Shown in pieces: positions 16,406 through 40,056 of a stretch of 45,632 nucleotides of DNA. This DNA is from Candidatus Cloacimonadota bacterium. GTDB lineage: Bacteria; Cloacimonadota; Cloacimonadia; Cloacimonadales; TCS61. The stretch lies in assembly GCA_027064945.1 (NCBI GenBank), contig JAMOPB010000237.1, forward strand, positions 1 through 45,632, written 5' to 3'. Position 1 is the first letter of the stretch. Every line of letters starts with the position of its first letter. The translations under genes and the position numbers were made by a program. Below the pieces are notes generated by a model. That model had not been told where the DNA came from. It did not search any database and worked only from the letters and a program-made list of their open reading frames with translations.

Positions 16406-16917
16406 AAAATAACAACCTTTCTAATAGCTTGTTGCAGTTGACTGTACCTAGATGCAGAAAAACTTTTTTAGTCTGCGCGAACCGGTCTGGACGGTTCACT
16501 GCGAATTGTTTTCTAGTTAATAGAAAATAGTAACCTTTCTAATATTATGTTACAGTTGGCAGAACCTAGATGCAGAAAAACTTTTTTAGTCTGCGCAAAC
16601 CGGTTTGATCCCTAGAAACTTTTTTCTAGTAAATAGAAAATAGTAACCTTTCTAATACTATGTTACAGTTGGCAGAACCTAGATGCAGAAAAACTTTTTT
16701 CTAGAGATCATCTCGGTCTGATCTCATTGTTGCGATGAAGTCGCAACAATGAGACGGCCTGTTAGATAACTTCCTTTTAGAAGTTATCTAACCAGTCTGA
16801 TCCCTAGAAACTTTTTTCTAGTTAATAGAAAATAGTAACCTTTCTAATGTTATGTTACAGTTGGCAGAACCTAGATGCAAAAAAACTTTTTTAGTTCGCG
16901 CGAACCGGTCTGGACGG
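16406..16917 (-). repeat. tandem array L: 4 copies of a ~113-118-bp unit (one expanded to 192 bp), reverse complement of array R
   Basis: Core aacctttctaat-NNNN-tgttacagttggcagaacctagatgcagaaaaactttttt begins at 16414, 16532, 16645 and 16837. A degenerate partial copy at 16341-16362 abuts the ATG of 12201-16340. Confidence 0.95.
16722..16792. repeat. double-hairpin module (copy in array L)
   Basis: tctcattgttgcga-tgaag-tcgcaacaatgaga (14-bp stem) followed by gttagataacttcc-tttt-agaagttatctaac (13/14 bp). Confidence 0.9.
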
Positions 16918-16988
16918 TAAAACTTTTTTAATTAATAAATATATTTAATTTTCTTAACAAACCTATAGACTATAAAACAGGAGCGCAC

Positions 16989-18773
16989 ATGCAACTAGAT
17001 AATCTAAGTTATGAAGTGCAGGAATATATGAAATGCAAATATAATCCGTTGTACTATATCGAAAATTATGTTAAGATTCCTACACAAGGTGGGCCAGTTC
17101 TGATATCAGAGGCTGGTCTCTGGAAAAAAACAAACAAATATAGACTTGCTATCAAATCTGCTTGGAAATTCAGAAAAGTAATTTTATTGTTTCCTAGACA
17201 GACTGGTAAAACAACGTTGAATGACGCAATTTTATCTCACACTTTGAATTTTTACGAAGGTATCCAAGCGGGGTTCGTATCGATTGATAAAAATAGAGTT
17301 ATGGATTTTATTAGACGATTACAATTTATTTACGACCATTTACCTGTGTTTTTAAAAACACCGCAAAAACGCTCGCTGTCAGATAGAGTAACGTATTTTA
17401 AATTATTAAACGGTTCTCAATTACACACAAGCGGAGTTTCTGGCAACGTTTCAGAATCAGAAGTATTCAGGGGTCTATCTTTAAGTAACTTGATAATAGA
17501 TGAGGCTGCATTTTTAAATATGAATGATTTGTTAACATCTGTTGGTCCAGCATATTCGAAAGCAAGTACAGAAGCAATCAAAGCAGGTAAACCAAGTGCA
17601 TTAATATTAACAACTACACCAAACGGCATTAATGATGGCGGTTTTTATAAAATTATGAGCAATGCAACTTCGATAGAAGAGTTGATAGTAGATCCAAAAG
17701 ATCCACTTTGTGATAAATTAAAATCTGACGAAGAATGTTTCGAAATCTTGAACCAAGAAGGACGTAACGGATATGTACTAGTAAAATTGAATTGGTGGGA
17801 AGTGTTTGATGATCAATGGTATAATCAACAGAAGCAATTATTAAACTTTGATAAAAGAAGAATTGCTCAAGAGATCGATCTTGTATTTTTAGGAAGCAGC
17901 ACATCGGTATTATCAGATGATGTTATTGCAAGAATGAAACCTGCTACACAATATACTGAAAAACAATTATTTAATAATATTAAAATTCATTTTTTCAATG
18001 ATCTTGATCCTGAACATGTGTATTTAATTGGAGTCGACGTAGCTGCATCCAGTGCAGATAGTCAAGCTGCCGATTATAGCGCGCTAGTTGTCTGGGATGC
18101 GACGTTAAATAGACAAGTTGCTGAATTAAAAGTACGAGAACCTGTGTTAAAAAATTATGGGTATGCGATAATTGAATTGATTAAATTTTTAATTAAAATT
18201 GTTAATATACCAGAATGGAATTTAAAATTGGTAATTGAAAGAAACTCGTTTGGATTAGGATTGATTGAACATTTACTATATGATCCAGACTGGGGTGACC
18301 TGATGGCTAGGATCTTGTATAAAAGTAAATTAAGAAATGATTTTGTATACGGGGTACAAGTAACCGCTGCTAATAGACCGCTTATTATTAACGCATTATT
18401 GCAGCTAGTAAACGAGAAGCCAGAATCTATTGTAGGCCCAGAATTAATTAAAGAATTACAAGTTTTAGAACAGAAAAGTAATGGAAGAATCGAAGCAGCA
18501 CGCGGTTTTCATGACGACGTTGTATTCGCCGCTTCACATGCAGTTTATGCTAGAAAAGATTTGATTAAAAGAGGAGAACTCGAAGGAAACCCTGATGAAA
18601 ATTATGGTCCAAGAGTATCACTTGAGCAAATTTTAACAGTTGTTAAAACAGATGATAGTGAGGATGAGCAAGCTGAATTACAAGTAATTGAACATCGCAG
18701 TAATAATTTGGAAGCTGAAAAGAGGGATAGGCAGTTAGAAGTTGAAAAAGCAATATTAAGTATATTAAATTAA
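16989..18773 (+). CDS. terL: terminase large subunit
   Basis: Walker A LFPRQTGKTT, Walker B LIIDEAAF, RNaseH-like nuclease motifs GVDVAASSADSQAADYSALVVWD and GFHDDVVFA. 594 aa. AGGAG SD 6 nt before the ATG. Confidence 0.9.
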   Translation: MQLDNLSYEVQEYMKCKYNPLYYIENYVKIPTQGGPVLISEAGLWKKTNKYRLAIKSAWKFRKVILLFPRQTGKTTLNDAILSHTLNFYEGIQAGFVSIDKNRVMDFIRRLQFIYDHLPVFLKTPQKRSLSDRVTYFKLLNGSQLHTSGVSGNVSESEVFRGLSLSNLIIDEAAFLNMNDLLTSVGPAYSKASTEAIKAGKPSALILTTTPNGINDGGFYKIMSNATSIEELIVDPKDPLCDKLKSDEECFEILNQEGRNGYVLVKLNWWEVFDDQWYNQQKQLLNFDKRRIAQEIDLVFLGSSTSVLSDDVIARMKPATQYTEKQLFNNIKIHFFNDLDPEHVYLIGVDVAASSADSQAADYSALVVWDATLNRQVAELKVREPVLKNYGYAIIELIKFLIKIVNIPEWNLKLVIERNSFGLGLIEHLLYDPDWGDLMARILYKSKLRNDFVYGVQVTAANRPLIINALLQLVNEKPESIVGPELIKELQVLEQKSNGRIEAARGFHDDVVFAASHAVYARKDLIKRGELEGNPDENYGPRVSLEQILTVVKTDDSEDEQAELQVIEHRSNNLEAEKRDRQLEVEKAILSILN

Positions 18774-18784
18774 AAAATACAAAA

Positions 18785-18829
18785 AACAGAGTAACGCAAA
18801 ACGGTATAATCCGATTGCGTTACTCTGTT
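18785..18829. terminator. bidirectional terminator between convergent terL and 18842-19456
   Basis: 15-bp stem aacagagtaacgcaa/ttgcgttactctgtt. A-rich on the left and T-rich on the right. Confidence 0.85.
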
Positions 18830-18841
18830 TGCTATTTTCTG

Positions 18842-19456
18842 TTATTCTAATCCATATGAATATGATTTTCTTATTTTTGTATCGAATGCAGGAGCTGGAG
18901 CAGGTTTAACTTCTTTAGATTGACCTGTAATTTTATCTAAAAAGTTTGCAGCTTTTATGCCACTTTCAGTAGGCTGTAGACCATATTTGGCAGTTTTTTC
19001 AACATTATTTTGGAATGTTTTAACACCTTTAGATATAATATTTTCTGGTTTTGGAACTGTTTTATCATTTAAAACTTCACCAGTATTTGTGATGTGTGTG
19101 CCGCTTGGTAAAGTTACACCTGCATTAATTTTATGACCAGGGTGTACTTTATCTGGTTTTGGAACTGTTTGTTCAGCCGGCGCTTTAACTTCGACTGTTT
19201 TGTTACCGAGATTAGTATGTTTCTGTGTTTCAGCTGCTAAATCTTTTTGTTCAGCCGGCTGTTCAACTGTTTCTTCATTTTTCTTATTGAAAAATTCTTT
19301 AGCGGTTTTTAATGCGGGATCAAGATGCCCTGTTTTATATGCATAATAAGTACCTCCTGCAAGAGCTGCTAAACCTGCTGCTGTTGCTAGTTTACCTTTA
19401 TGTTTAGAAACAAATTCTTTTGCTTTTTGTACAATAGATTCATGAATTATTTCCAT
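18842..19456 (-). CDS. YtxH-like membrane-anchored protein, paralog of 19574-19993
   Basis: KAKEFVSKHKGKLATAAGLAALAGGTYYAYKTGH aligns with KAKDFVVKNKGKLAALAGAAALAGAGAYYAHQH of the neighbouring gene. N-terminal MEIIHESI leader. Confidence 0.5.
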   Translation of the reverse strand: MEIIHESIVQKAKEFVSKHKGKLATAAGLAALAGGTYYAYKTGHLDPALKTAKEFFNKKNEETVEQPAEQKDLAAETQKHTNLGNKTVEVKAPAEQTVPKPDKVHPGHKINAGVTLPSGTHITNTGEVLNDKTVPKPENIISKGVKTFQNNVEKTAKYGLQPTESGIKAANFLDKITGQSKEVKPAPAPAFDTKIRKSYSYGLE

Positions 19457-19520
19457 TATTAAATCCTTTTTGTAATTTTATACAGTTATTTGGGCATAGA
19501 TTTCTAAATGCGCAGTTGCT

Positions 19521-19560
19521 AAAAAAACAATAACGAGATTCGCAGCTGCGAATCTCGTTA
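19521..19560 (-). terminator. intrinsic terminator after 19574-19993
   Basis: Perfect 30-nt palindrome taacgagattcgcag/ctgcgaatctcgtta (19531-19560), preceded on plus by aaaaaaacaa. Confidence 0.75.
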
Positions 19561-19573
19561 AATGATAATCAGA

Positions 19574-19993
19574 TTATTTTGTTTCGTTTCCTGAGAAAGT
19601 TTCTTTAACTTTTTCTGCTATATCGCCAGCTTTTTCTTTAACAGTTTCAGCTGCTTGACCAGCTTTTTCTTTAACAGTTTCAACTGCTTCGCCAGCTTTT
19701 TCTTTAGCGTTTTCTAGTGCTTCGCCAGCTTGATTTTTAAGAGCTTCTACTTGATCAGGATGTTGATGTGCATAATAAGCACCAGCACCTGCAAGAGCCG
19801 CTGCTCCAGCTAAAGCTGCTAATTTACCTTTGTTTTTTACAACAAAATCTTTAGCTTTTTTAAGTGTATCGCCAGCTGCTTCAACGATATATACATATCT
19901 TTCAGCAGTTGGAGTACCAGCTGCTTCTTCTAAAATAGTAGTTTTAGCTTGAAGTACTGCGTTTTCTACAATTACATCGAATAAATGTGCCAT
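19574..19993 (-). CDS. YtxH/LEA-like protein with 11-residue amphipathic repeats
   Basis: Ala/Gly hydrophobic helix followed by KEKAGEAVETV KEKAGQAAETV KEKAGDIAEKV, encoded by 33-bp tandem repeats at 19626-19757. Confidence 0.5.
   Translation of the reverse strand: MAHLFDVIVENAVLQAKTTILEEAAGTPTAERYVYIVEAAGDTLKKAKDFVVKNKGKLAALAGAAALAGAGAYYAHQHPDQVEALKNQAGEALENAKEKAGEAVETVKEKAGQAAETVKEKAGDIAEKVKETFSGNETK
19626..19757 (-). repeat. in-frame 33-bp tandem repeat x4 (11-residue amphipathic repeat)
   Basis: ccagctttttctttaacagtttcagctgcttga and variants at 19626, 19659, 19692 and 19725. Confidence 0.85.
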
Positions 19994-20008
19994 ATTTCTT
20001 TCCTTTAA

Positions 20009-20425
20009 TTAAAGAATTTCAAGTTTAGCTGCAATTTTAGCCGCTAGGTCTGCGCTTTCTTGCACTAAATCTTCTTCTTTAGTTTCTTCAGCTTCGCCAG
20101 CTTCAGGAGCTTCACCAGCTTCAGGAGCTTTTTCACCTTCTTCAGCTTCAACTTCTTCTGCTTTAACTACTTTGTAACCAGCAGCTTCTAGTTGTTTTTT
20201 AAGTTCTTCGAGTTCTTCTTCGCTAGGTACAAATTCATCCATAGCTTCTGTTATGATTTTTTCATAAAGTTTACTAACAGTATCAACTTCTTCTTTAAGA
20301 ATCGCGCCACTTTCTTGAATTACTCTGTGGATTGTGCTATTTAGAGCAGCTGCTGCTAAATCCATAGCTGCTGCAGCACTCGCTTCAGCGATTAAATCTT
20401 CAAAAACGATTACATTTTTTTCCAT
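20009..20425 (-). CDS. acidic Ala/Glu-rich hypothetical protein (138 aa)
   Basis: ORF with AAAGGATATTTAAT before the ATG. N-terminus MEKNVIVFEDLIAEAS. PEAGEAPEAGEA repeat. Confidence 0.5.
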   Translation of the reverse strand: MEKNVIVFEDLIAEASAAAAMDLAAAALNSTIHRVIQESGAILKEEVDTVSKLYEKIITEAMDEFVPSEEELEELKKQLEAAGYKVVKAEEVEAEEGEKAPEAGEAPEAGEAEETKEEDLVQESADLAAKIAAKLEIL

Positions 20426-20485
20426 ATTAAATATCCTTTATGGGAATTTTTATATTACAGGTTTTAGTTAAAGCAAACTAGAAAA

Positions 20486-21331
20486 CTAGTTTGCTTCTTC
20501 GTTGTCTAATCCAATCCCTGCCACTTCAGCGGGATTGAATGGTACGTTTATGCCAGCTTCTTTTAACGCGTTTACGAAAATAAAAGGTGCAACAATTGCT
20601 GCAATTTTAGCAACTGCTGATTTAAATGCTTCAATTTTTTCAGCAAGCGTGTTTCCAAAAATATCAGAATATCCTTCTGGTAAATTGTTTTTATAATCTT
20701 CAATTTGTTTGAAGATTCTTGAAGGAATTAACGTGTTTTCTATAGCATGTGCGACCGCATTTTCTGCACCCAGATATTTAGCAACTGCTTCAGGATCGTT
20801 TTTATCCAGAATACCAGTTTTAGCACATTTGATTATCAAACCTTTAATGCCAGGTGCTAGAATACGTTTTGCTTCACATCCATTTTGTACATCTTCGAAT
20901 AATAATTCAGATTTTAAATTTGGTTTATTAAATTCATGTTCTAAAATTAAATTGAAACTTCTTTTATAATGTTTAAGCATCTCGTCTTCTGATAATACTT
21001 CGTAATCGATAGCTGGCGATACAGTACGCGGAGAAACATCCGCTTCTTGTAAAATTTGACCAGCTAGAACCATAGCTTCAGTAATCAATTTATCGTAAGC
21101 TGCTTTAGCAGCTTCGCTTTTGCTACCAATAATTGTTTCAAAAATGTGCTCAAAAAATATTGCATCTTTTTCTGCTTTTTTGAGCATATCTTTTTTATCG
21201 AAACCTTTTATTTTTTTAACACCTTGGGGCCCCGATTGTATCCCACAGTTGCGTCCTTCTTCGATCATTTCTAGAGCCTTGCGAGCAGTCTCCAGTGTCT
21301 CGAATTTTTCTTTTTCAGAAAATCCTATCAT
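20486..21331 (-). CDS. hypothetical protein (281 aa)
   Basis: ORF in a tightly packed minus-strand operon. No domain recognised. Confidence 0.5.
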   Translation of the reverse strand: MIGFSEKEKFETLETARKALEMIEEGRNCGIQSGPQGVKKIKGFDKKDMLKKAEKDAIFFEHIFETIIGSKSEAAKAAYDKLITEAMVLAGQILQEADVSPRTVSPAIDYEVLSEDEMLKHYKRSFNLILEHEFNKPNLKSELLFEDVQNGCEAKRILAPGIKGLIIKCAKTGILDKNDPEAVAKYLGAENAVAHAIENTLIPSRIFKQIEDYKNNLPEGYSDIFGNTLAEKIEAFKSAVAKIAAIVAPFIFVNALKEAGINVPFNPAEVAGIGLDNEEAN

Positions 21332-21347
21332 CGAAATTCCTTATTAA

Positions 21348-23948
21348 TTAATGTTTTTTCTTTGGTAAAGATATATTTTTATATAAGCCGCGTGATGGAT
21401 CCATTAAGAAATCATAATTATTACGCAACTCTCTAATCGGGATTTTGGTCTTTGCTCCTCTATATAAATAAGGTACCCCAACATTATTCATATACACATA
21501 TGCATCATTGCGACCGTAAATTATTACATTGAAGTATGTTATTCCGTATACTTTATCTAGAAACTTGATCACAGAATCTGGTGAATTATAAGTAATTCCT
21601 GAGAAAGTATCCGACATAAGAACATATGTGAATTTTGCCAAATCCTGAATAACAGCACCATCAAAAGTTAATAACCCTACATTGCTTGGAGTTAATAATG
21701 TACTGAAATGTAGAATATCTTTGGAAATAATATCTGCCTCCACATCATTTCTACGAGAATTATAAATGAAATTATCAAATGCATATCCAAAAAAGTTAAT
21801 TAATACAGGTTTTAGATAATATTTGAAATAAATTTCTAGTAAATGTTCAGCTAAAGGTTCTTCATTTATTTTTTCAGAAATTTTTTTAGAAGCAATTTTT
21901 GCTGAAGCAATTTTACGTAAATAATCTTCAGGGAAAAGATTATCATATTCGCTAATATATTGAGCAATTTCATCATTAAATATAAAACATTTATTCACAT
22001 TCTTAATAAATTTTTCAATCGCAGCTGCATATCCCGGAGATATGTTCTCAATTTCTTTAAGTTCTTCATCAGATAACACATATTCTTTTAGCATCCAATT
22101 AATATATTTAAGACCATAAAATAATTCAAGTTGTTTAATAGCATTATCATAATCAGTTGCTGTTTTTATAGACGCTATGTAACCAGTAATTTTTGTAATT
22201 GAAAAATCAACAATTTCTATATATGCTAAGATTTTAATTAAAATTTTTTCTATTTTATGTTTAATAATGCCACTTAGATGTTTGATTGTTTTAGAAATTG
22301 CTTTTGCTGCATTATTGATGATTGATTGCACCATACGTTCAGCAACAGTATCGTTATTTAAAAGGTTACCAATTTTACTAAATGCATTATTTAATTCGCT
22401 TCGGATACTAGCGCGAATATGCCCAATACTGATAGTTAACCCTTGACGAGTTATAATATTTTGTACGATTTTTTCGATATTATCGGCTTCATAGGTACGT
22501 ACTTTGAAACATTTCCCGATATCATCTAAAAGATCTTCTATATCTTCTTTTAATCTATCTAATAATATTTCATCTTTAGAGAGTTTTCTCTGATCCCAAG
22601 CTTGCTGAAAACTGTCTTTACGCTCTTTTAATTTGTCAGTTTCATCACAAATTTCATTAATATAATTAATATCATTTTTAAAAATTTCAAAAATAAAATA
22701 ACTCAAATCTGTTTTATGGTTTAAAAATTTATCGTATGTGATTACTTTACGTGATAAATCAGATACTGATTTATTTTTTTTCAGACCTTCATAAAATTCT
22801 GCAACTACTTGAGAAATAAATTTATCTTTTTTAGGATTTTCTGGATCGGTATCTAGTAACTCTTTAGTTAAATAATTACGAGTATAATCGCCTATCTGTT
22901 TAAGCGTGCGCTGCAATTTAAGTTTCAAGGAATTCTTAATGTTGTAATCAGACAGCTTATATGATGTTGACCAATCAAGTAATCTTTTTTCACCTGTACA
23001 GATAGCTGCATACTCGCGTGTTATCACCGGTATAAAAGAATCCATTTGTGCGGTAAGATCTTTCTGTAGTACATTACTATCTAAAGCTTGCTCAATTTGA
23101 TTTCTGTATTCCAGTTTCTTTTCATCTTGCGGTGAAAGGCCGTATTCTGTATATTTTTCTAACATGTCTTGTGTCATAGGTCGGTAACTGAAATCAGTCA
23201 CTATGTTTCTTGATTTACCCATATATATCAAGAACCCTACAACATCTTGAATATCTTTATCCCTAATATGTTCAAAGTATTCTGATAATACTGTAATATT
23301 TTTTTCAAGCGGTGTAACAACAGGATTTTTGCCTTTTAATGCACGTTGCCAATCTAGCGAAACACTTTTTTCAATTATTTTGTCTTGTATTTTATATCCG
23401 CTCGCTGTGATGTGAATATTTTTCACAAGTTCTTTGAATTTTTGTCTCATATTATCTAGATTTCCACCTACTGTGCTTCTGAATACAAAGTTGTATAAGT
23501 TCTCATCTTGTAGCACAATTAACAGAACTCTAGTTCTATGAACAACATTGTCTCTGTTTTTCGGATTAAGAATAGAATTTGCATTGTCTGCATCATTGAT
23601 AACAAATCTATCTTCTTTTGGCAACATAGGTCCATTAGATAACAAGATTGCTTGAAAAATTTGAGCTGCTTTATCGCTATCAAATTTTTCCATTTTCAAT
23701 AAATAATATTCATAAATAACCTCAGCAACAGCTGCTCGAACTTCGTTATCTTTTGTATATTGAGCACCTCTTACAATTTCTTTATAGAGAACCGGATAAA
23801 ATAAACGGTGCCTGAACATAGGATCATATCTGAGATCTTCAATAAAAGCTTTAAGGCGGAGTGCAGCTTGCTCATGAAGTGTTTCTTGTATCGGTTTTGG
23901 CGGTTTTTTATTTTTAGATGTTTTTTTAGAAGATGTACCACTGGCCAT
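21348..23948 (-). CDS. large hypothetical protein (866 aa)
   Basis: Long ORF with a basic N-terminus (SSKKTSKNKKPPKP). No domain recognised. Confidence 0.55.
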   Translation of the reverse strand: MASGTSSKKTSKNKKPPKPIQETLHEQAALRLKAFIEDLRYDPMFRHRLFYPVLYKEIVRGAQYTKDNEVRAAVAEVIYEYYLLKMEKFDSDKAAQIFQAILLSNGPMLPKEDRFVINDADNANSILNPKNRDNVVHRTRVLLIVLQDENLYNFVFRSTVGGNLDNMRQKFKELVKNIHITASGYKIQDKIIEKSVSLDWQRALKGKNPVVTPLEKNITVLSEYFEHIRDKDIQDVVGFLIYMGKSRNIVTDFSYRPMTQDMLEKYTEYGLSPQDEKKLEYRNQIEQALDSNVLQKDLTAQMDSFIPVITREYAAICTGEKRLLDWSTSYKLSDYNIKNSLKLKLQRTLKQIGDYTRNYLTKELLDTDPENPKKDKFISQVVAEFYEGLKKNKSVSDLSRKVITYDKFLNHKTDLSYFIFEIFKNDINYINEICDETDKLKERKDSFQQAWDQRKLSKDEILLDRLKEDIEDLLDDIGKCFKVRTYEADNIEKIVQNIITRQGLTISIGHIRASIRSELNNAFSKIGNLLNNDTVAERMVQSIINNAAKAISKTIKHLSGIIKHKIEKILIKILAYIEIVDFSITKITGYIASIKTATDYDNAIKQLELFYGLKYINWMLKEYVLSDEELKEIENISPGYAAAIEKFIKNVNKCFIFNDEIAQYISEYDNLFPEDYLRKIASAKIASKKISEKINEEPLAEHLLEIYFKYYLKPVLINFFGYAFDNFIYNSRRNDVEADIISKDILHFSTLLTPSNVGLLTFDGAVIQDLAKFTYVLMSDTFSGITYNSPDSVIKFLDKVYGITYFNVIIYGRNDAYVYMNNVGVPYLYRGAKTKIPIRELRNNYDFLMDPSRGLYKNISLPKKKH

Positions 23949-23960
23949 TATTAGTCCTTA

Positions 23961-24484: not shown

Positions 24485-24493
24485 TGTACCTCC

Positions 24494-31570: not shown

Positions 31571-31624
31571 CTAATCTTTGAAAAATATATAATATCATAT
31601 TGCACCTCCTTTCATAGTTTTTTA

Positions 31625-31708: not shown

Positions 31709-31713
31709 GTTTG

Positions 31714-32190: not shown

Positions 32191-32196
32191 ATTATG

Positions 32197-32769
32197 TCAT
32201 CCTTTTTTTGGCATCAAATAACAATAAATATCGTGATCACAAATTGCTTCAATATCTTTATCATTTTTTAATTTATTCAACATGTTTTTACCGATTTCTT
32301 CAGCATCCACAAACACAAAATAATTATCTGCTTTAATTTTATCTCTATCATCACCATATGAAGGCATAAGTTTGAAATAACTTGGCGCGTTTATTACAAA
32401 ATCTTTTATTAATTCATATGATTCTTTTTCATTAATAAATCTTGGAAATACTGTTGAAGAATATTTATCATAAAACGTGATTGCATATGGCTTATTTTTA
32501 GGAAACGGCTTACAGTTTGCGCAGTGAAAGTCTTTAGATTGCAAAACAACTGGTTCTGCGTAAGCTACTAGTTTACCGTTTTTTTCAAATGCGTATACGC
32601 CACAACAAGCATCATTTAATTCTCTTAGCACATCATTGATGTTTGCTGATTTCGGCTCATCAGATAATTCATCAAGATGTCTTGACACGTAATTTTTAAA
32701 CGATATAGATTTAGTTGCTGGTTTAATAATAAATTTTAAAGAATTTATTTGTCCCGTTGCCTCCAGCAA
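32197..32769 (-). CDS. Cys-containing hypothetical protein (190 aa, TTG start in track)
   Basis: The ORF is open from the upstream stop. The only in-frame start candidate is TTG 32769, with no clear SD. Confidence 0.4.
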   Translation of the reverse strand: MLEATGQINSLKFIIKPATKSISFKNYVSRHLDELSDEPKSANINDVLRELNDACCGVYAFEKNGKLVAYAEPVVLQSKDFHCANCKPFPKNKPYAITFYDKYSSTVFPRFINEKESYELIKDFVINAPSYFKLMPSYGDDRDKIKADNYFVFVDAEEIGKNMLNKLKNDKDIEAICDHDIYCYLMPKKG

Positions 32770-32811
32770 TAATGCTTTTGCGCGATATGTGATATATTTT
32801 TTATCCGTGTT

Positions 32812-33699
32812 TTATCCTTTATTTAATTTATTTGTTAAATATGCGTACAAACCAACACCGATTAATCCTGTTTTTGTTACAACACCATTCCAAAAAGCAT
32901 GTAATACTTGCGCAATCAATGTACCGCGATCTTCGATTGCTTGTTTTATTTTATAATTATTCGGGTTTTTTGAATATAATTCGATAAATTGCGATTGCAA
33001 TTGTGTTTTTTTGTGAAAATATGTTGTGGATAAGTGAAATACAAACGAAAACAATCTCACAATAACTAGAAACAATACAGGAAAACCGAGTGCGGCAAAC
33101 TGCATAATATATGAAAGAGCTTCAGCGCCTGCTAAAGCAGAGGTCATTAAAAAACCTTTATACTGTTTAACGGCTGCACGTTTAAAGATTTCTTCAGTGA
33201 ACGGCGCACATAAAATTGCACCAATATATAACCCCATAGGTCCGAATAACGATACGCACGTAGTCATCACAACAGTATTTAATATATAAATAAAAATAAA
33301 CATCACCGCAAGTATTAATGCATCTTTTGCTTGAATATTTTTTAATTCTTCTTTGAATTCATTGATAATAAAATCAAAAGTGAATATTTTATCCAGATCT
33401 TGATATTTGCCTTGCTCGATATTTTTAATTATTTGATCTATTTTGCGTTTATCGATTCCTTGTTTGTCTAAAAACTGTATTATTCTCTGTTGTTGAGAAT
33501 AATACATGCGTTTCACACGTTCAATATCTTTTTCAGACTGAAATGCTTTGAAAAGAGAATCATATATTTTTTCTAAAAATGCGTTAATCGGATTGCTGAG
33601 TTTAGCAAATTTTTCTGTGATATCAAAATCAGATGCACGCGATTTAACCGAAGCTGTTTTAGCAATAGCTACAGCTTCAGTTATTATCATTTCGCGCAT
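32812..33699 (-). CDS. CPBP (CAAX protease / Abi, PF02517-type) intramembrane protease candidate
   Basis: Multi-TM protein with PFTEEIFKR (EExxxR motif 1), a mid-TM His (FSFVFH, approximate FxxxH) and LHAFWNG (HxxxN motif 3) in the expected order. MREMIITEAV leader. Confidence 0.55.
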   Translation of the reverse strand: MREMIITEAVAIAKTASVKSRASDFDITEKFAKLSNPINAFLEKIYDSLFKAFQSEKDIERVKRMYYSQQQRIIQFLDKQGIDKRKIDQIIKNIEQGKYQDLDKIFTFDFIINEFKEELKNIQAKDALILAVMFIFIYILNTVVMTTCVSLFGPMGLYIGAILCAPFTEEIFKRAAVKQYKGFLMTSALAGAEALSYIMQFAALGFPVLFLVIVRLFSFVFHLSTTYFHKKTQLQSQFIELYSKNPNNYKIKQAIEDRGTLIAQVLHAFWNGVVTKTGLIGVGLYAYLTNKLNKG

Positions 33700-33701
33700 T
33701 A

Positions 33702-34214
33702 TTAACCTTTTTTAATAATTTTTCTAGGATCTGTCTTAATTGCTTCTTTAACTGCTTTAAGAAATTCTTGTTTTGCTTGATCGTTAGGGACACCATTTTT
33801 AATTAATTTAAATATCTCATATAATCTTGATATTGCAAATATTGCAGCAAGCGGTGTCATTATTGGCGCTGCAATCAATGTTACGCCGGGTACAAACCCA
33901 AGTCCGATAACAACTGCAATAACATCAATTATAAAGAAAAGTACAGCCATAGCAAATTGAGCGAAATAATCACTTTTAGACATTAGATGTTGATCACTTT
34001 TTTCAAGTAAATCTTCAACTTTTTCTCCCCAAGCAACTATTTTTTCCCACTGCTTTGTATTAATTTTACCTTGTTTATGCATTTTTTCAGCCCAATCATA
34101 AACTTCTGTGTATATATCTACAAGTTTATTATGGTTGGTCATAATTTGGTGTTCTAGATCTTGAGAAACTGATTCTTCTATTATTTGCATTGTTAAACAA
34201 CTTAATTCTGCCAT
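33702..34214 (-). CDS. membrane protein (170 aa, two TM helices)
   Basis: FAMAVLFFIIDVIAVVIGLGFVPGVTLIAAPIMTPLAAIFAI. N-terminal region contains MQIIEES. Confidence 0.5.
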   Translation of the reverse strand: MAELSCLTMQIIEESVSQDLEHQIMTNHNKLVDIYTEVYDWAEKMHKQGKINTKQWEKIVAWGEKVEDLLEKSDQHLMSKSDYFAQFAMAVLFFIIDVIAVVIGLGFVPGVTLIAAPIMTPLAAIFAISRLYEIFKLIKNGVPNDQAKQEFLKAVKEAIKTDPRKIIKKG

Positions 34215-34215
34215 A

Positions 34216-34740
34216 TTAATTTCCTTTTCTTTTATTTACTAGCGGACCGCTCCCGTCATACTGGGTACCAATTGCTTTGATGATTTCACGCTCATATTCG
34301 CGTAAATCTTTTGGATTATCAAATGTTTTTATAATAACTATCCAGTTATTTTTATATTCATCTAGGTTTTTTGGCATCAGATTATCAGGATTTCCGCTTT
34401 GCTTATTTTGTTCGATTTGTCTTTCAAGTTCTTGAAAAAATTTCTTTTTGTATTGATTTTGTGAATCATCGATATTTCGGACAAAATTGTTTATATGATG
34501 ATTCATACGGTACTGCAGGCTGTTTTCTAGTTTACCTACATATACTGGTAAGTATGCTGATTTAACAGTTTGCTGTTTACCACAACACTGAAAATTATAT
34601 TCATAATCACCACTATGGAAAGGATCTAAATACATATAAATAGCATATTTATGTTTGCGATAATCGAAACGAGCAACTCTCGGGCTAACTTTGTCATATT
34701 TAAGATTTGTGGTTTTGTAGCTGTCTGATGTTATTAGCAT
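34216..34740 (-). CDS. GIY-YIG homing endonuclease
   Basis: KYAIYMYLDP (GIY-like), PVYVGK (YIG), YRMNHH (conserved Arg/His), REYEREIIKAIG (catalytic Glu) and LVN, in I-TevI-like order. Confidence 0.7.
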   Translation of the reverse strand: MLITSDSYKTTNLKYDKVSPRVARFDYRKHKYAIYMYLDPFHSGDYEYNFQCCGKQQTVKSAYLPVYVGKLENSLQYRMNHHINNFVRNIDDSQNQYKKKFFQELERQIEQNKQSGNPDNLMPKNLDEYKNNWIVIIKTFDNPKDLREYEREIIKAIGTQYDGSGPLVNKRKGN

Positions 34741-35084
34741 TTTAACTTCTTCCTTAATTCTGTAAGCTGTTTGCTGTTTATCTTGCTGCAGATCGAATTT
34801 TCTTTTGCACGGATAAATAATTCGATAAATTGTCTAAAATCTTCGCGAGTTGCTTTTTGGCGATAACTACGTTTAAAACTTGTATGAAACATTTTATGAC
34901 ATTCATCACATAAACATATACCATTTTCCGGGTCGAAGCGTTTTTCTGGAAAATAAGTTGCGTGGTCTAAATGATGCGCGTGTCTATTTTTAATCGATCC
35001 ACAAATTTGACATACCTTATCACGTCTAATCACGGTGGCGCGCCAAATACGGTAATCGCGGGTTCGACGCCAGTTTTTGCTCAT
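34734..35084 (-). CDS. HNH homing endonuclease
   Basis: WRATVIRRDKVCQICGS..HAHHLDH....ENGICLCDECHKMFH is a classic phage HNH pattern with CxxC...CxxC and H-N-H. Confidence 0.9.
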   Translation of the reverse strand: MSKNWRRTRDYRIWRATVIRRDKVCQICGSIKNRHAHHLDHATYFPEKRFDPENGICLCDECHKMFHTSFKRSYRQKATREDFRQFIELFIRAKENSICSKINSKQLTELRKKLKC

Positions 35085-35326
35085 TTGTTTTTCTTTTTAT
35101 CAGATTTTGTGATTTTATTAGTCAGATAGATTGAACCTAGTGCTCCGCCTGCTGCTCCTAATCCTGCTAATTTAACATGAAGTGCAGGCATAGTTAAATC
35201 GCCTGCTAATGTATCAGCTAGCGCGTGACCAGCAACCGCGCCACCTGCAAGTCCCGCACCTAACATGGCTAACCTTGCTTTTGGATTTTCTTTCAATATT
35301 TTTCTTGCTTTTTCCGCAATACTCAT
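35081..35326 (-). CDS. small glycine-zipper membrane protein (81 aa)
   Basis: LAMLGAGLAGGAVAGHALA....LAGLGAAGGALGSIYL. MSIAEKARKIL leader. Lys-rich C-terminus. Confidence 0.55.
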   Translation of the reverse strand: MSIAEKARKILKENPKARLAMLGAGLAGGAVAGHALADTLAGDLTMPALHVKLAGLGAAGGALGSIYLTNKITKSDKKKNK

Positions 35327-35327
35327 T

Positions 35328-35735
35328 TTATAATCCTTTGCATTCGCGTTCTAAATCATGAATTTCTTTTTTAAATCTCTCGATAATTTGATCTAAAGAA
35401 ACTTTTTTAGCTTCGTCGTAATGTATTTTTACTTTTTGACCTTTTATTTCAGGGTTATCAATTGCATATTTGATATCCTGATCACATTTACTTAAATATT
35501 TTTTAACACTTGCTTTGAATATATCCATCGCGATTGCATAAGGAATTTTTTTACATCTGGTAGATTTTGCAGCTAGTAATTCAGCACGGCGCCAAAATAA
35601 AGCCATCAAGCTTTCAGGTACATTGTATTTTTTTGCCCAAGACTTAATAACATTAGAATTTGTTTCAAATCCACGGACTACCGGACAACGTGCTTCAAAT
35701 ATCAATTTAGCTTTTTCTGCAATTAGATCTCTCAT
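35328..35735 (-). CDS. hypothetical protein (135 aa)
   Basis: Coupled ORF. MRDLIAEKAKLIFEA leader. Confidence 0.5.
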   Translation of the reverse strand: MRDLIAEKAKLIFEARCPVVRGFETNSNVIKSWAKKYNVPESLMALFWRRAELLAAKSTRCKKIPYAIAMDIFKASVKKYLSKCDQDIKYAIDNPEIKGQKVKIHYDEAKKVSLDQIIERFKKEIHDLERECKGL

Positions 35736-36280
35736 TAGCTTACCCCGTATTTCTTTTTCATATTTTCAAGTTCAGCTTCTTTCTTGCCGCGCCAATAATT
35801 ATATCCTGGTTTGATTAAAGCACGACCAGCTGTTTTTAATAAACCAGCACCTGCCCCCAGCAGTGCACCTCCTCCAACACCAATCAACAAATTTAACCCT
35901 TCATTGCCTCTAGCATGACTAGCTAATGCTGCTCCTGTAGCTGCTCCTGCTGCAGCACCACCAACTACGTCTTTTGTTAAACCTTGTTTTGCACGCGCTA
36001 TAATATTTTTTCTCGTATAAACATCTGTCCATTTGATATTTTTATCTTTTGCAGCTAACGCCCCTACTGCACCTTCTCTTTCATATTTTTCACCAATTTG
36101 CTCGTGCCCAACTTTACGTCCAGCAAGAATTGAATTTATACGATTATACTCAGAACCATGAAACCAATCAGAACTGCGTTTGGCTGTTTCATGTTCGGCG
36201 TACTTATTTATTAAAGCACGTGCTTTTTGTTTTGCACGTTCCCTGGCTTCTTTTATACTGTCTGATGTACTACGAGCCAT
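35735..36280 (-). CDS. glycine-zipper protein, paralog of 31714-32190
   Basis: GEKYEREGAVGALAAKDKNIKWTDVYTRKNIIARA..VVGGAAAGAATGAALA..IGVGGGALLGAGAGLL..KPGYNYWRGK. Confidence 0.55.
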   Translation of the reverse strand: MARSTSDSIKEARERAKQKARALINKYAEHETAKRSSDWFHGSEYNRINSILAGRKVGHEQIGEKYEREGAVGALAAKDKNIKWTDVYTRKNIIARAKQGLTKDVVGGAAAGAATGAALASHARGNEGLNLLIGVGGGALLGAGAGLLKTAGRALIKPGYNYWRGKKEAELENMKKKYGVS

Positions 36281-36283
36281 CTT

Positions 36284-37303
36284 TTATACTCTTACTTTTG
36301 ATTTATAATTTAAAACGATTTTTTCCATGTTGAGCTGAATTTCGCGATCGATTGGCCCCATGTTAAATAAAATAGAATGATGCGCAGATATTACAGCCCA
36401 TGCTACAAAATAATCATAAGTACCGTAGATCATTGATAAAACATTTGTTCCAAATCTTTTTGCAATTGCGTTATTTAAAGCTATTGGTGTGATGTTAATT
36501 ACTTTGATCATACCAAGTAAAGCCGGTAATTTATCCATAGAATTCAAAGAGGTAATTCCGTTTTTTGCTAATAAATCTGCTATCTCAGATCCATATTTTT
36601 TTGCAATGTTATGTAATACCTCACGAGGTTTCAAATTTGTAAATGCCACTGTGAATATATAATCGATTGCTGCGTTATATATTTTTTTATCATGGATTTG
36701 CATCATGCTTCCGATGCTTATTTCAAGAATTTTTTTAAATAATTCTATACTTAAATCAAAAAGTGTAACACTGGAACCTCTGTCAATTTCAGCAACTATA
36801 TATCTTAGAAATGAAAAATAAATAGCTTCAGCAATTCTCGGATAATCGAGCATAGCGGCTAAAGTTTCTTGTAATTCCTCACTTTCATTTTTAAGATTCA
36901 CAACTTTTTCAATCGAAGCATCATCAATTCTTTTTTGTAGAGTTATAATTTCTTTTGAGATTTTTTCTAATTTTTTAATTATATTAATAATATCAGTAGC
37001 TGTGTCTGGCGAACAGCGTACTATGTCTGGTATAATGCCTGCTAGTAAATTATGATCACCAACATAAATAGAAAAAACCGGAACTTCGCTACCTGCAGCT
37101 GTCGCGCTGTATCCTAAAAATATTTTATCGTTATCTAACAATTTACGTACTGTTCTGGTGTATGCGTTGGCACCTAGTTTCTGCAACGTTATATCCATAT
37201 TTTTATAGAATCTATTGTAAAGTATTTTAGAAGGTTGTTTCAAGATTCTTGCAATAGATTTTTCACTGCTTTCAAAAAATGGAGTTAAAACTGTTTTTTG
37301 CAT
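36284..37303 (-). CDS. hypothetical protein (339 aa, helical)
   Basis: ORF in the operon. No domain recognised. Confidence 0.5.
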   Translation of the reverse strand: MQKTVLTPFFESSEKSIARILKQPSKILYNRFYKNMDITLQKLGANAYTRTVRKLLDNDKIFLGYSATAAGSEVPVFSIYVGDHNLLAGIIPDIVRCSPDTATDIINIIKKLEKISKEIITLQKRIDDASIEKVVNLKNESEELQETLAAMLDYPRIAEAIYFSFLRYIVAEIDRGSSVTLFDLSIELFKKILEISIGSMMQIHDKKIYNAAIDYIFTVAFTNLKPREVLHNIAKKYGSEIADLLAKNGITSLNSMDKLPALLGMIKVINITPIALNNAIAKRFGTNVLSMIYGTYDYFVAWAVISAHHSILFNMGPIDREIQLNMEKIVLNYKSKVRV

Positions 37304-37317
37304 GTGGATCCTTTAGA

Positions 37318-37659
37318 TTAAATTTTGCTATTTAATAATTTTTGTATATAAAGTTTATCTGGAATTAGCATCTGATCACCGATATTTTCGCGCGTAAAAT
37401 TAAAAAATGTTGGACAATCATTAATAAACATTATTATATTTGTAAGAGCTAACGATTGAAAATAATCCCATGCCACTAAATCAGGGCGCATATCGTATCT
37501 CGAAGAAGAAAATTCTATTTTATTTGAATTTTCTTTTAATTCTTTTAAATTTAAGTTAAAAATATTTTCAAGAGGCTCAGATGTTAATTGTTCATATATT
37601 GATTCATCGAAATCGTCCAATTCAGTAGGAATGAAAGGTGTATAGCGTTTTATTTCCAT
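37318..37659 (-). CDS. hypothetical protein (113 aa), faint LysM/tail-protein-X-like C-terminus
   Basis: YDMRPDLVAWDYFQS...ENIGDQMLIP is weakly reminiscent of P2 gpX-type LysM. Not sufficient for a call. Confidence 0.35.
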   Translation of the reverse strand: MEIKRYTPFIPTELDDFDESIYEQLTSEPLENIFNLNLKELKENSNKIEFSSSRYDMRPDLVAWDYFQSLALTNIIMFINDCPTFFNFTRENIGDQMLIPDKLYIQKLLNSKI

Positions 37660-37668
37660 TTTTTTCTC

Positions 37669-38247
37669 CTATACTGGGTTAAACGGCTGGTGTGGTTGGT
37701 GTTCTAATTTTCTAGCTATCGGAACACCGTTTTCTTTATAAAGATAAGTGCGCACTTTCTTTACCCGTTTATCCATAATTGAATTGTCAACTTTTACTTT
37801 GGGATAAATATCATTTTTAGTTTTAAAACGATCTTTTTGATCTACAATACTTTTGCTTTTGCGTTTAGGATTATAAGGATTAGCAACATTTCTGATCATT
37901 TCAGCGCTTTGCCCCATTTGATAAGGAGATTCATACATACTTTCTTTAATTATTTTTTGAGCTTTTTGCTTGATTGTTTTGCGATTAATTGGAAGTATTG
38001 ATGAAGGATTTAAATCGTTTTTTTGCAATTCTATTTCTGCATCTGGTTCACCATCAGAATCTATATCAAGTTCTAATTCGATTTCTTCAGGAGCTTTAAG
38101 TTGGTTTAATGACAGTTGTGCGCCTCGTTTAATATTTTGAGTTAAATTGCGTGCTTGGTTTGTGATTACAGTTTTAGTTCCTGTCATAATTTTAGCACCA
38201 CTTGTTATCGAGTTTAATATTGATTTATTATTATCGCCCATATACAT
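37669..38247 (-). CDS. hypothetical protein (192 aa, basic)
   Basis: Coupled ORF (1-nt overlap at 38247). Confidence 0.5.
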   Translation of the reverse strand: MYMGDNNKSILNSITSGAKIMTGTKTVITNQARNLTQNIKRGAQLSLNQLKAPEEIELELDIDSDGEPDAEIELQKNDLNPSSILPINRKTIKQKAQKIIKESMYESPYQMGQSAEMIRNVANPYNPKRKSKSIVDQKDRFKTKNDIYPKVKVDNSIMDKRVKKVRTYLYKENGVPIARKLEHQPHQPFNPV

Positions 38248-39146
38248 TATTCTGCCTTTTCGATTTCTGTATCATTATTTGTTTCATCATTTTTTTCTAG
38301 CTCTTCACCAACTTGTTCTTCTGTAGCATCTCCGGCAAAATCTGGGTGTGCTTCTTTATCTACTTTATAAGGACCGTAATGAGCTACTTCGGTTTCGTCC
38401 CCATTGAGATCTGCAACTTTAACAATAACAGATAATGATAACGCTCGTACCCAGTAATCTGCATCTACTTTCATTAGCATATATAAAAATGAATCTTGTA
38501 ATGTGAAACTCATATTTATTGAATGTGAATCACTGTTTTTATCTTGATTAAGTGAAATTGATTCACATTTCATAATCGGTGTTGAGACGCATTTAGCAAA
38601 CAGATCATAGTTACTAGCATCATCTTTCATTTGAGCAAATATATTTATTGCATTATCCGCAGCAGGATCATATCCTTCAAGTATATTTTCAGGTAAATAA
38701 AGAAAATAATCGTATTCAAAATCGTAATAATATTTACCCTCATGAGGAAAATACTCACTGTAATTATGAAAAAAATCTAACAATTGCGCACCAGTTTCAA
38801 AGTTAACTGTAATATCGATACCAATATTGTACCTATTGGTTAATCCGTATATTTCAAATTTATCCAATACGCTTGCTATTGGGAAAGCGTTAGGAAATTG
38901 TATCAAATCTGCAGCATTTGTACCGACAGACATGTTTTGAGCAAGAGGATATGTAAATTGTTTTTGAATATTATTAATGTTGATAATGCCTTTTGGGAAT
39001 GGTTGCGGATTTCTGTGAAGTTTGATAGAATCAAAGGTTTTAGAATTATAATTAAAATCCCATTGGCTAATTGGTAATAATGGTGAAGCTGATTGAATAG
39101 CTGCAGCCATACCTCGCATTAAAGCATAATATTGTGTGTGTATCAT
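38247..39146 (-). CDS. hypothetical virion-type protein (299 aa), first gene of the minus-strand operon next to array R
   Basis: AAAGGACGAAGACT-ATG. GCCCCAATGATTAGCA element (39184-39199) upstream. Acidic C-terminal tail. Confidence 0.5.
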   Translation of the reverse strand: MIHTQYYALMRGMAAAIQSASPLLPISQWDFNYNSKTFDSIKLHRNPQPFPKGIININNIQKQFTYPLAQNMSVGTNAADLIQFPNAFPIASVLDKFEIYGLTNRYNIGIDITVNFETGAQLLDFFHNYSEYFPHEGKYYYDFEYDYFLYLPENILEGYDPAADNAINIFAQMKDDASNYDLFAKCVSTPIMKCESISLNQDKNSDSHSINMSFTLQDSFLYMLMKVDADYWVRALSLSVIVKVADLNGDETEVAHYGPYKVDKEAHPDFAGDATEEQVGEELEKNDETNNDTEIEKAE

Positions 39147-39183
39147 AGTCTTCGTCCTTTGATCAATTGCCTTTTATTTAAAA

Positions 39184-39199
39184 TGCTAATCATTGGGGC
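39184..39199 (-). promoter_or_regulatory. GCCCCAATSATTAGCA element upstream of 38247-39146
   Basis: The minus strand reads gaaGCCCCAATGATTAGCAttttaaataaaaggcaattgatcaaaggacgaagactATG. Confidence 0.35.
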
Positions 39200-39223
39200 T
39201 TCTCAATATTTTTATATTTTTAA

Positions 39224-39235
39224 GATAGCATACTA
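39224..39235 (+). promoter_or_regulatory. degenerate GATAG-cATAcTA motif at the left edge of array R
   Basis: taagatagcatactagaaaaca. Same orientation as the array units. Two mismatches to the motif. Confidence 0.2.
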
Positions 39236-39383
39236 GAAAACAATTCACAGTGAACCGTCCAGACCGGGATGATATCTAGAAAAAAGTTTTTCTGCATCTA
39301 GGTTCTGCCAACTGTAACAAGCTATTAGAAAGGTTGTTATTTTAAAACAACAAACTGAAAAACTAGTTTGGTCGTCTAGACTA

Positions 39384-39454
39384 GTTAGATAACTTCCTTT
39401 TGGAAGTTATCTAACAGGCCATCTCATTGTTACGACTTCATCGTAACAATGAGA
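39384..39454. repeat. double-hairpin module (array R copy 1)
   Basis: gttagataacttcc-tttt-ggaagttatctaac and tctcattgttAcga-cttca-tcgTaacaatgaga, both perfect 14-bp stems. Confidence 0.9.
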
Positions 39455-39696
39455 TCAGACCGGGATGATACCTAGAAAAAAGTTTTTCTGCATCTAGGTT
39501 CTGCCAACTGTAACAAGCTATTAGAAAGGTTGTTATTTTAAAACAGTAAACTGAAAAACTAATTTGGATGATCAGACCGGGATGATACCTAGAAAAAAGT
39601 TTTTCTGCATCTAGGTTCTGCCAACTGTAACAAGCTATTAGAAAGGTTGTTATTTTAAAACTGCAAACTGAAAAACTAGTTTGGACGATCAGACTA

Positions 39697-39767
39697 GTTA
39701 GATAACTTCCAAAAGGAAGTTATCTAACAGGCCGTCTCATTGTTGCGACTTCATCGCAACAATGAGA
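39697..39767. repeat. double-hairpin module (array R copy 2)
   Basis: gttagataacttcc-aaaa-ggaagttatctaac and tctcattgttGcga-cttca-tcgCaacaatgaga. Flanked by 8-nt direct repeats gatcagac at 39687-39694 and 39766-39773. Confidence 0.9.
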
Positions 39768-40056
39768 TCAGACCGGGATGATATCTAGAAAAAAGTTTTT
39801 CTGCATCTAGGTTCTGCCAACTGTAACAAGCTATTAGAAAGGTTGTTATTTTAAAACTGCAAACTGAAAAACTAGTTTGGACGATCAGACCGGGATGATA
39901 TCTAGAAAAAAGTTTTTCTGCATCTAGGTTCTGCCAACTGTAACAAGCTATTAGAAAGGTTGATTTTTAATATCAGATAATTTGTCAAATTTAAAAAAGA
40001 ACTGGGAGAAAATAAACACCAATTTCTATATATTCTTTAATAATTAAAATAAGTTA

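Follow-up and report, generated by a model that had tools for sequence, protein, structure and literature searches.

Tandem repeat arrays at gene-block boundaries of an uncultured phage lineage with an AR9-like RNA polymerase: possible promoter cassettes and recombination substrates

Introduction

Long repeat regions separating gene modules are known from the Campylobacter group II phages CP21, CP220 and CPt10 (Firehammervirus), where four modules are divided by the regions RR1–RR4, the arms of which consist of up to 18 units of 72–86 bp with a 13-nt core (AAACTTAAAGCAA) in direct or inverted arrangement; the unit numbers vary even among closely related phages, and CP21 has two of its modules in inverted order (PMC4546147). 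The T4-type phages carry promoter-early stem-loop elements (PeSLs), single short composite motifs in which an early promoter for the host sigma-70 polymerase is combined with a terminator stem-loop (PMC2839356, PMC4122927). In phage AR9, the late promoters of the non-virion polymerase have the consensus AACA-(6N)-TA/G (PMC5312081, PMC7598289), while the early promoters of the virion polymerase have the consensus AAATATATATTAT-(6N)-G, and late-type initiation upstream of early promoters has been tied to continuous expression (PMC5312081). Here we describe two inverted tandem repeat arrays, L and R, in a stretch of 45,632 nucleotides (positions 1 to 45,632 of contig JAMOPB010000237.1, assembly GCA_027064945.1, filed under Candidatus Cloacimonadota; hereafter the window), and their counterparts in related metagenome contigs, which are designated below by the letter L with a number. 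The genome carrying these arrays is that of an uncultured AT-rich phage lineage combining T4-like structural genes with an AR9-like multisubunit RNA polymerase.

The closest precedents for the arrays are found in the repeat regions of CP21/CP220 and in the PeSLs of T4-type phages, and CP21/CP220/CPt10, with modules separated by variable repeat regions, have the closest described architecture; an initial annotation of the window, which recognised the arrangement from no described phage, was wrong in this respect. In common with the CP21 type, the arrays are long extragenic tandem regions lying between gene modules, the phage being likewise an AT-rich myovirus whose structural genes are T4-like, and they occur in direct and inverted order, vary in unit number between close relatives, break assemblies and are associated with rearrangements. 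This likeness is based on the published description of the repeat regions, no repeat region having been located in the two CP21 stretches compared directly. In contrast to the CP21 type, the units are longer (113–118 bp, or 196 bp with an insert, against 72–86 bp) and fewer (2–6 against up to 18 per arm), they lack the 13-nt core, and the lineage encodes its own multisubunit RNA polymerase. Array flipping was observed here and module inversion was not, and within the 59 kb of CP21 compared only the large terminase (terL) was weakly similar (26%), so that membership in the Eucampyvirinae was not supported. With the PeSLs the arrays share the character of dispersed composite intergenic motifs at cassette boundaries acting as sites of exchange and indels: related genomes differ in whether an array is present and in its copy number, and one array coincides with the junction of a rearrangement. 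Unlike the PeSLs, they are built of tandem ~115-bp units with no sigma-70 promoter, and their hairpins are optional and have no T-run.

Structure, Distribution and Instability of the Arrays

The arrays occupy multiple loci, have a sequence variant specific to each genome, change in copy number, flip, come and go at gene-block boundaries and mark rearrangement breakpoints, and their units are conserved block by block with neither coding capacity nor a conserved RNA structure. With a probability of about 0.4, they are amplified regulatory or promoter cassettes placed at transcription-unit boundaries and serving at the same time as recombination substrates. The latter role follows from the presence of the same palindrome-rich sequence at many boundaries in both orientations, while the regulatory function is inferred from the conserved motifs discussed below.

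Repeat search and Tandem Repeats Finder (TRF) confirmed the two near-identical inverted arrays reported in the initial annotation and corrected their bounds to 16386–16929 for array L and 39233–39976 for array R. Array R consists of five tandem units on the plus strand with start-to-start distances of 196/117/196/117 nt, which are mutually 94–100% identical over 94 nt and form a 313-nt super-unit in 2.3 copies according to TRF. Array L has four tandem units in the minus orientation spaced by 118/113/192 nt, the most diverged copy (69% identity), already singled out in that annotation, being the one nearest to the 1379-aa gene. As had been proposed, array L is the reverse complement of array R, with inverted-repeat arms of up to 166 nt at 95% complementarity; the longest exact common stretch measures 65 nt and is accompanied by 14 more exact runs of 32–45 nt. 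A 26-nt core (GCATCTAGGTTCTGCCAACTGTAACA) is present in eight exact copies in the window with none expected from 100 shuffles. The basic unit is 113–118 nt long, and some units have in addition a 79-nt insert made of two long perfect hairpins with 14-bp stems, which separates long from short units; the 196/117 alternation in array R is due to this insert in alternate units.

Both arrays are located in divergent intergenic regions, as confirmed by the gene map, and point outward. Array L, whose units are arranged head-to-tail, lies between the minus-strand 1379-aa gene and the plus-strand terL with its tail end towards the former, and array R lies between the minus-strand 299-aa gene and the plus-strand genes beginning at 40241 with its tail end towards the RNA-polymerase operon (coordinates in Table 1). 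The 22-kb block between them is not a single transcription unit, having strand switches at ~18.8, 28.4 and 31.6 kb. Coding repeats were ruled out, since neither array contains an open reading frame (ORF) of at least 35 aa, and no tRNA-like elements were found.

Relatives were gathered by a metagenome scan and through terminase and polymerase homologues; the pattern used in the first metagenome search was loose and gave mostly chance matches. The same unit family was found in at least ten further related metagenome contigs, among them L003, L010, L036, L046, L062, L068, L104, L118 and L120, at no less than six gene-block boundaries and always in intergenic positions. One relative comes from a hydrothermal-vent metagenome; IMG/VR yielded only a single contig with arrays (L010), and the GTDB genomes yielded none. 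The comparison with related genomes advocated by the initial annotation thus placed the arrays in a wider family, in which the array orientation, however, differs between lineages. The units fall into two sequence variants, W-type and type-3, which are ~25% apart, and all arrays of a contig belong to one variant. Arrays comprise 2–6 units across the family, and the number is unstable at short range: L003 has four units and L118 six at 99.8% identity of the two over 9.8 kb. In many contigs at least one end falls within an array, indicating that the repeats break assemblies.

More distant lineages have arrays of other periods, with 52-nt units in L134 and L144 and 32-nt units in L138, which share only short motifs (GCATYTAGGTTC, AGTAAACTGAAA, AGAAAGGT and the palindrome) with those of the window. 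The array site that separates the polymerase operon from the 299-aa gene is kept from the window to L134. The latter contig (JBPKYW010000006.1, 113 kb) and L144 (JBPKYW010000040.1, 16 kb) belong to GCA_054040455.1, a distant relative of at least 129 kb, which encodes ribonucleotide reductase, topoisomerase and the polymerase operon and whose 52-nt units are flanked by a ~90-nt element used as inverted repeat.

The whole array L of the window is inverted relative to its counterpart in L003 with the flanks collinear, and the arrays by the 299-aa gene and after the 249-aa gene are likewise flipped between W-type and type-3, i.e., at three of the three loci comparable between the two lineages. With a chance probability of 1/8 if orientation is free, this is not significant by itself. 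Beside the 1561-aa gene, L003 retains the degenerate remains of a unit tail in reverse orientation, and the last unit of its array breaks off after CAACTGTAA, which places one inversion breakpoint within a unit. Recombination between arrays L and R cannot yield such flips, because the array end touching a given flank never changes in it, while recombination between palindromic sub-elements could flip arrays. In L134 the 52-nt-period array is flanked by 87-nt inverted repeats with 91% complementarity. The arrays of the window showed no discrete inverted repeats at their ends. On a smaller scale, the loop of the first hairpin reads TTTT in one copy and AAAA in the others, a small hairpin-mediated inversion. 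Finally, nothing but a perfect palindrome (CAGACCGGTCTG) separates terL from the portal gene in L001; the 14.6-kb tail block is missing there, which marks this boundary as rearranged.

Conserved Blocks and Possible Promoter Function

The ~115-bp cassette is composed of a degenerate palindrome (ATCARACCGGTYTGAT, the junction or J element, of which each unit has a degenerate copy), an A6/T5 quasi-palindrome bounded by CTAG, the core GCAnCTnGGT...CAACTGTAACA, a 6-nt spacer of variable sequence, then TAGnAAGGTT and a small AT hairpin. Column conservation revealed four blocks kept between the variants, AAAAAAGTTTT, GCA.CT.GGT, CAACTGTAACA and TAG.AAGGTT; AACA and TAG are kept in both variants, and the six bases between them were the most variable part of the unit. 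The resulting motif AACA-N6-TAG is present once per unit in all nine units of the window; the exceptions among relatives are two L010 units with AACT and the truncated last unit of L003 without the motif. Conservation of primary sequence without a conserved RNA structure indicates recognition at the DNA level.

The geometry of AACA-N6-TAG matches the AR9 late consensus, in which AACA is likewise followed by six variable bases and TA(G). A further similarity to AR9 is that the split RNA-polymerase beta-prime encoded downstream of array R has its best cultured matches (~28% identity) in AR9-like jumbo phages of Staphylococcus and Bacillus, namely in the beta-prime subunits of their non-virion polymerases, and that a motif of the early type is located downstream of the array. 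The units may thus be docking sites for the phage's own transcription machinery acting at the DNA level, each unit representing a stacked late-type promoter AACA-N6-TA with the start at the A, probably combined with an operator. Array L would fire leftward into the tail operon. Array R would fire to the right, across the early promoters and into the operon of the non-virion RNA polymerase, adding late-type initiation upstream of these promoters and possibly resulting in sustained expression. In contrast to AR9, where late promoters are single and positions -11 to +1 are sufficient, at least 45 further upstream bases are conserved here and the putative sites are stacked 4–6 times.

The positions of the W-type arrays agree with such a role: every array tail of known context leads into a gene start (both arrays of the window, L010 and L046) and every head meets either a divergent gene start or an upstream terminator, as expected of stacked promoters. 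Similar motifs are found outside the arrays, 28–47 nt upstream of terL in six of seven lineages and upstream of the 1379-aa gene in three of three: MMCA-N6-TA is located 28–40 nt upstream of terL in the six lineages and CCCAAAGCWATAG upstream of all three orthologues of the 1379-aa gene. The structural genes have a shared upstream motif of AAACCCAAAG or GCCCCAAT followed by N and TAG, 30–50 nt before the start codon (1728–1740, 16369–16381 and 39186–39198 among other sites), which is probably the late promoter of the lineage, with the AR9 geometry and CCCA/CCCC replacing AACA. In consensus scans for sigma-70 and sigma-54, promoter-like matches were no more frequent in the array regions than in shuffled sequences, and none of them recurred from unit to unit. 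A sigma-54 promoter was also rejected by hand, as the TGGCA...TGCA spacing in the units is wrong, and a terminator scan found none in the units, their hairpins having no T-run.

Phage T7 has tandem strong early promoters, A1–A3, and its primary origin consists of two tandem phage promoters and an AT-rich region. The putative promoters described here are similarly stacked ~100–125 bp apart in the same direction, with an AT-rich stretch after array R, but the T7 elements belong to one locus and are not near-identical repeats, and the AT-rich stretch here corresponds to an early promoter and a leader.

Several observations weigh against a promoter function. Orientation is not conserved, the type-3 arrays being flipped at every comparable locus. 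Stacked outward promoters, as proposed in the initial annotation, are still the best single functional idea in view of the AACA-N6-TAG motif and the AR9-like polymerase. In their forward direction, the type-3 array of L068 and the element in L001 lead to the 3' end of a convergently oriented gene, and so does the array of L134, whose orientation was judged from the short GCATYTAGGTTC only. The promoter-like motif is low in information content, the arrays of L134/L144 and L138 have no AACA-N6-TA and only short motifs in common with the family, and the core was never found as a single copy upstream of any gene. The flanking late genes have promoter-like motifs of their own, and there are relatives with no array at terL. 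An extended late-like motif was observed four times upstream of window genes with 0.18 expected in a post hoc test, while neither the strict nor the loose form was enriched upstream of genes at five independent related loci; for these two reasons the AR9 late motif as a general late promoter is only suggestive.

Putative Early-Type Promoter and Leader Downstream of Array R

The 150-bp A/T tract following array R was taken in the initial annotation as a hint of a replication origin. This idea is weakened, since the tract is better read as an early promoter with a leader. It contains a motif (GATAGATATTATAATAAG) resembling the AR9 early consensus, which is also found upstream of the polymerase operon in L132, L134, L136, L140 and L142, and downstream of the motif come an A-rich leader and, at 40113–40209, a GC-rich element, a layout present in relatives as well. 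The tract was accordingly rejected as evidence for an origin. The AT-rich motif shared between the window and the relatives, (A)TAGAWATTATA-N5-6-G, is located at 345, 532 and 768 in L132, at 9786 in L134 and at 129 and 321 in L142, in addition to the two copies in the window. The GC-rich element has an outer stem GCCTCGAAGCTGG/CCAGCTTCGAGGG and a near-invariant centre GAGAAGCGACCGCGCGGAGCATACTC, belongs to no Rfam family and is a candidate for a new structured leader or small RNA.

The first ORF past this element (40241–40372) encodes a very basic 43-aa peptide (MKIKKRDWNIVAIARGEINARPKVVHSKKKYSRKLKHKKREYF) with a strong ribosome-binding site and is kept at the same place in L136 and L137. It is followed at 40483–40968 by the first sizeable early gene, present in all relatives, whose 161-aa product is conserved over the N-terminal 100 residues and varies in its acidic tail. 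A by-eye assignment of this protein as a helix-turn-helix (HTH) or other DNA-binding regulator was unsupported: it has no sequence match in Pfam or PDB, and its AlphaFold model, with a pLDDT of 47, is unfit for a fold search.

Alternative Explanations

Instead of promoters, the arrays might be orientation-independent protein-binding platforms, i.e., iteron origins, centromere or partition sites, or binding arrays of a global regulator or nucleoid protein recognising the J and CTAG-rich motifs. Known iterons are ~20 bp long and the units of sopC 43 bp; both kinds of array are confined to one locus beside their rep or par genes, and iteron origins include an AT-rich unwinding element. The window arrays resemble iteron, sopC and parS arrays in being tandem direct repeats with a short palindromic, here putative, protein-binding site, and a lack of dependence on direction would agree with the labile orientation towards flanking genes at every comparable locus. 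J-like sites are over-represented in the window (11 matches compared to 0.66 expected, eight of them inside the arrays), the tetranucleotide CTAG reaches 21 per kb in the arrays compared to 2.5 per kb elsewhere, the J palindrome is shared with lineages without full arrays (perfect CAGACCGGTCTG in L001 and CAAACCGGTTTG in L139), and the short motifs of distant lineages are kept in tandem at 52- and 32-nt periods. Nevertheless, we consider binding platforms unlikely: the units of ~115 bp are far from those of iterons or sopC, at least six loci per genome are unusual for origins or centromeres, and no recombinase, initiator/Rep or ParB-like gene was found by Pfam and PHROGs among ~40 ORFs of the 45.6-kb window, the candidate DNA-binding protein just downstream of array R (40483–40968) being the one left unconfirmed above. 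An iteron origin specifically is disfavoured by the missing initiator gene in the window, by the A/T tract beside array R being accounted for otherwise and by the many loci. GC skew is uninformative for an origin, because it follows the coding strand only.

Selfish or neutral recombinogenic repeats of the PeSL or CP21 kind, homogenised by gene conversion and with genome plasticity as their only real effect, would explain much of the instability: array presence differs at the same boundary among close relatives (L120 compared to the window; L001, L144 and L004 at terL), copy number is polymorphic, the variant is particular to each genome, hairpin loops (TTTT or AAAA) are inverted from one copy to another and metagenome contigs break within arrays. 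Repeats of this kind have published precedent (PMC4546147, PMC2839356, PMC4122927). It is doubtful that this is the whole explanation. The discrete blocks are kept between variants that are otherwise ~25% different, the short motifs last in lineages at only ~50% protein identity, and the site between the 299-aa gene and the polymerase operon persists from the window to L134, which together argue for selection on both sequence and position.

The exact stretches of up to 65 nt shared in inverted order by arrays L and R, the flips at all three comparable loci, the inverted repeats around the L134 array and the module inversion documented in CP21 (PMC4546147) would all fit a programmed inversion switch, either as a flip-flop of the 22.3-kb block through recombination of the two arrays or as an invertible multi-promoter array with a dedicated recombinase. 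In known invertible promoter switches (the fimS type and the invertons of Bacteroides), short inverted repeats bound the segment, a cognate recombinase acts on it and one population contains it both ways round. The initial annotation had proposed flipping of this block, and recombination between the arrays remains plausible from the 65-nt identity and the CP21 precedent. However, inversion of the block from terL to the 299-aa gene was not seen: all relatives spanning the array loci (L003, L118, L104 and L134) keep the adjacency of the window. The genomes with flipped arrays are distinct lineages (flanking proteins ~57–96% identical) rather than isomers of one genome, the flips have the chance probability given above, and no recombinase is visible in the 45.6 kb. 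Furthermore, block inversion would leave the operon faced by each array unchanged, because the arrays point outward. A programmed switch is therefore quite unlikely.

A related variant combines inversion with transcription, and we likewise give it little credence: the arrays may be invertible multi-copy promoter or enhancer cassettes for the non-canonical multisubunit RNA polymerase of the phage. Inversion of an entire array would be enabled by its palindromic sub-elements (the J element, the A/T tract bounded by CTAG and the paired hairpins). Such flips would possibly be coordinated across loci, as all three comparable ones are flipped between the two lineages, redirecting strong transcription between neighbouring operons. 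If true, the phage would have a directional switch acting across the whole genome, of a kind undescribed among lytic phages.

It is very unlikely that each unit is a small non-coding RNA gene or that the arrays are precursors of abundant structured RNAs. The super-unit does fold far better than shuffles on both strands (z = -6.9 and -5.6), mainly because of the two long hairpins, and the changes tolerated in a 5-bp stem, GTAAC/GTTRY, are all G-U-compatible when read on the forward strand. In contrast, RNAalifold on 20 diverse units gave only -2.25 kcal/mol and eight pairs with no compensatory change, the hairpin insert is optional and conservation is confined to primary-sequence blocks. Rfam 15 produced no match at the gathering threshold in the whole window and only unrelated sub-threshold matches around array R. 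A structured RNA was thus rejected as the nature of the unit, there being neither an Rfam family nor covariation.

Packaging-recognition (pac) sites for the terminase, suggested in the initial annotation by array L abutting terL, are highly improbable, as many array loci are unrelated to terL and L001, L144 and L004 have no array beside it.

Features of the Window and Flanking Genes

Table 1. Positions of array units, sub-elements, promoter-like motifs and adjoining genes in the window, with array sites in related contigs.
Feature	Position	Strand	Remarks
Array L unit	~16909-16718	minus	192 nt, with hairpin insert
Array L unit	16717-16605	minus	113 nt
Array L unit	16604-16487	minus	118 nt
Array L unit	16486 to ~16402	minus	diverged, truncated last unit
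Array R unit	39263-39458	plus	196 nt
Array R unit	39459-39575	plus	117 nt
Array R unit	39576-39771	plus	196 nt
Array R unit	39772-39888	plus	117 nt
Array R unit	from 39889	plus	last unit, truncated after AAGGTTG
Double-hairpin insert, array L	16722-16792	minus	hairpin 2 at 16722-16754, hairpin 1 at 16761-16792
Double-hairpin insert 1, array R	39384-39454	plus	hairpin 1 with loop TTTT, then hairpin 2
Double-hairpin insert 2, array R	39697-39767	plus	hairpin 1 with flipped loop AAAA, then hairpin 2
AACA-N6-TAG, array L	starts 16856, 16664, 16551, 16433	minus	
AACA-N6-TAG, array R	39316-39328; further starts 39512, 39629, 39825, 39942	plus	
Perfect 12-bp palindrome CAAACCGGTTTG	16596-16607	none	best local copy of the J element
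Late-promoter-like motif CCCAAAGCAATAG	16369-16381	minus	between array L and ATG of the 1379-aa gene; kept in L003 and L138
Late-promoter-like motif AACAAACCTATAG	16956-16968	plus	upstream of terL
Late-promoter-like motif CCCCAATGATTAG	39186-39198	minus	between the 299-aa gene and array R
AR9-early-promoter-like motif GATAGATATTATAATAAG	40057-40074; second copy 40407-40424	plus	first copy within the A/T tract
GC-rich structured element	40113-40209	plus	candidate leader RNA; 23 pairs, 10 compensatory, 4 lineages (RNAalifold)
GC-rich element in relatives	L142 186-292; L134 9832-9918; L132 583-676; L140 1-62		
1379-aa gene	12201-16340	minus	adjoins array L; first gene of the leftward late (tail/baseplate) operon
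terL (large terminase)	16989-18773	plus	lone plus-strand gene
299-aa gene	38247-39146	minus	adjoins array R; first gene of a leftward operon
Split RNA-polymerase beta-prime	41296-42636 and 43017-45011	plus	downstream of array R
Array site in L003, L118			between 1561-aa gene and terL
Array site in L104			beside 299-aa gene
Array site in L120			upstream of the orthologue of window gene 28467; no array there in the window (28.4-kb boundary)
Array site in L046, L068			after 249-aa head-module gene; the L001 contig begins there
Array sites in L010, L036, L062			three other boundaries

At the DNA level, the window had no match among 50,697 phage records. It encodes a T4-like large terminase and a T4 baseplate protein, and the L004 homologue of the 1379-aa gene has a weak phage-lysozyme match. 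The strand of terL is opposite to that of both neighbouring late operons in the window, L003, L001, L138 and L144, while in the more distant L004 (9960–11717) terL and these operons run in the same direction; in one sub-lineage this gene alone seems to have undergone inversion.

Several further features were noted in the coding part. The halves of beta-prime are separated by a 121-aa ORF, and the corresponding gap in L134 (11234–12389) is filled by two ORFs made of nine 93-nt tandem repeats. Inside the bracketed block, an HNH endonuclease gene (34734–35084) is located within the minus-strand late operon. Two small minus-strand genes, 19574–19993, with a match to an apolipoprotein-like helical repeat, and 20009–20425, contain in-frame tandem repeats of 33 nt (19600–19764) and 9 nt (20056–20158), and similar coding repeats are present in L001 and L139.

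Implications

If the units are stacked promoters, they would provide a ready-made and strongly conserved recognition sequence for an uncultured AR9-like polymerase, testable in vitro, and would show how such phages raise or prolong the expression of the polymerase and tail operons. Whatever the function, module-separating repeat regions, so far described only in Campylobacter group II phages, are also present in an unrelated lineage, and this repeat family matters for the assembly and comparison of uncultured large phage genomes and for the reshuffling of their modules.

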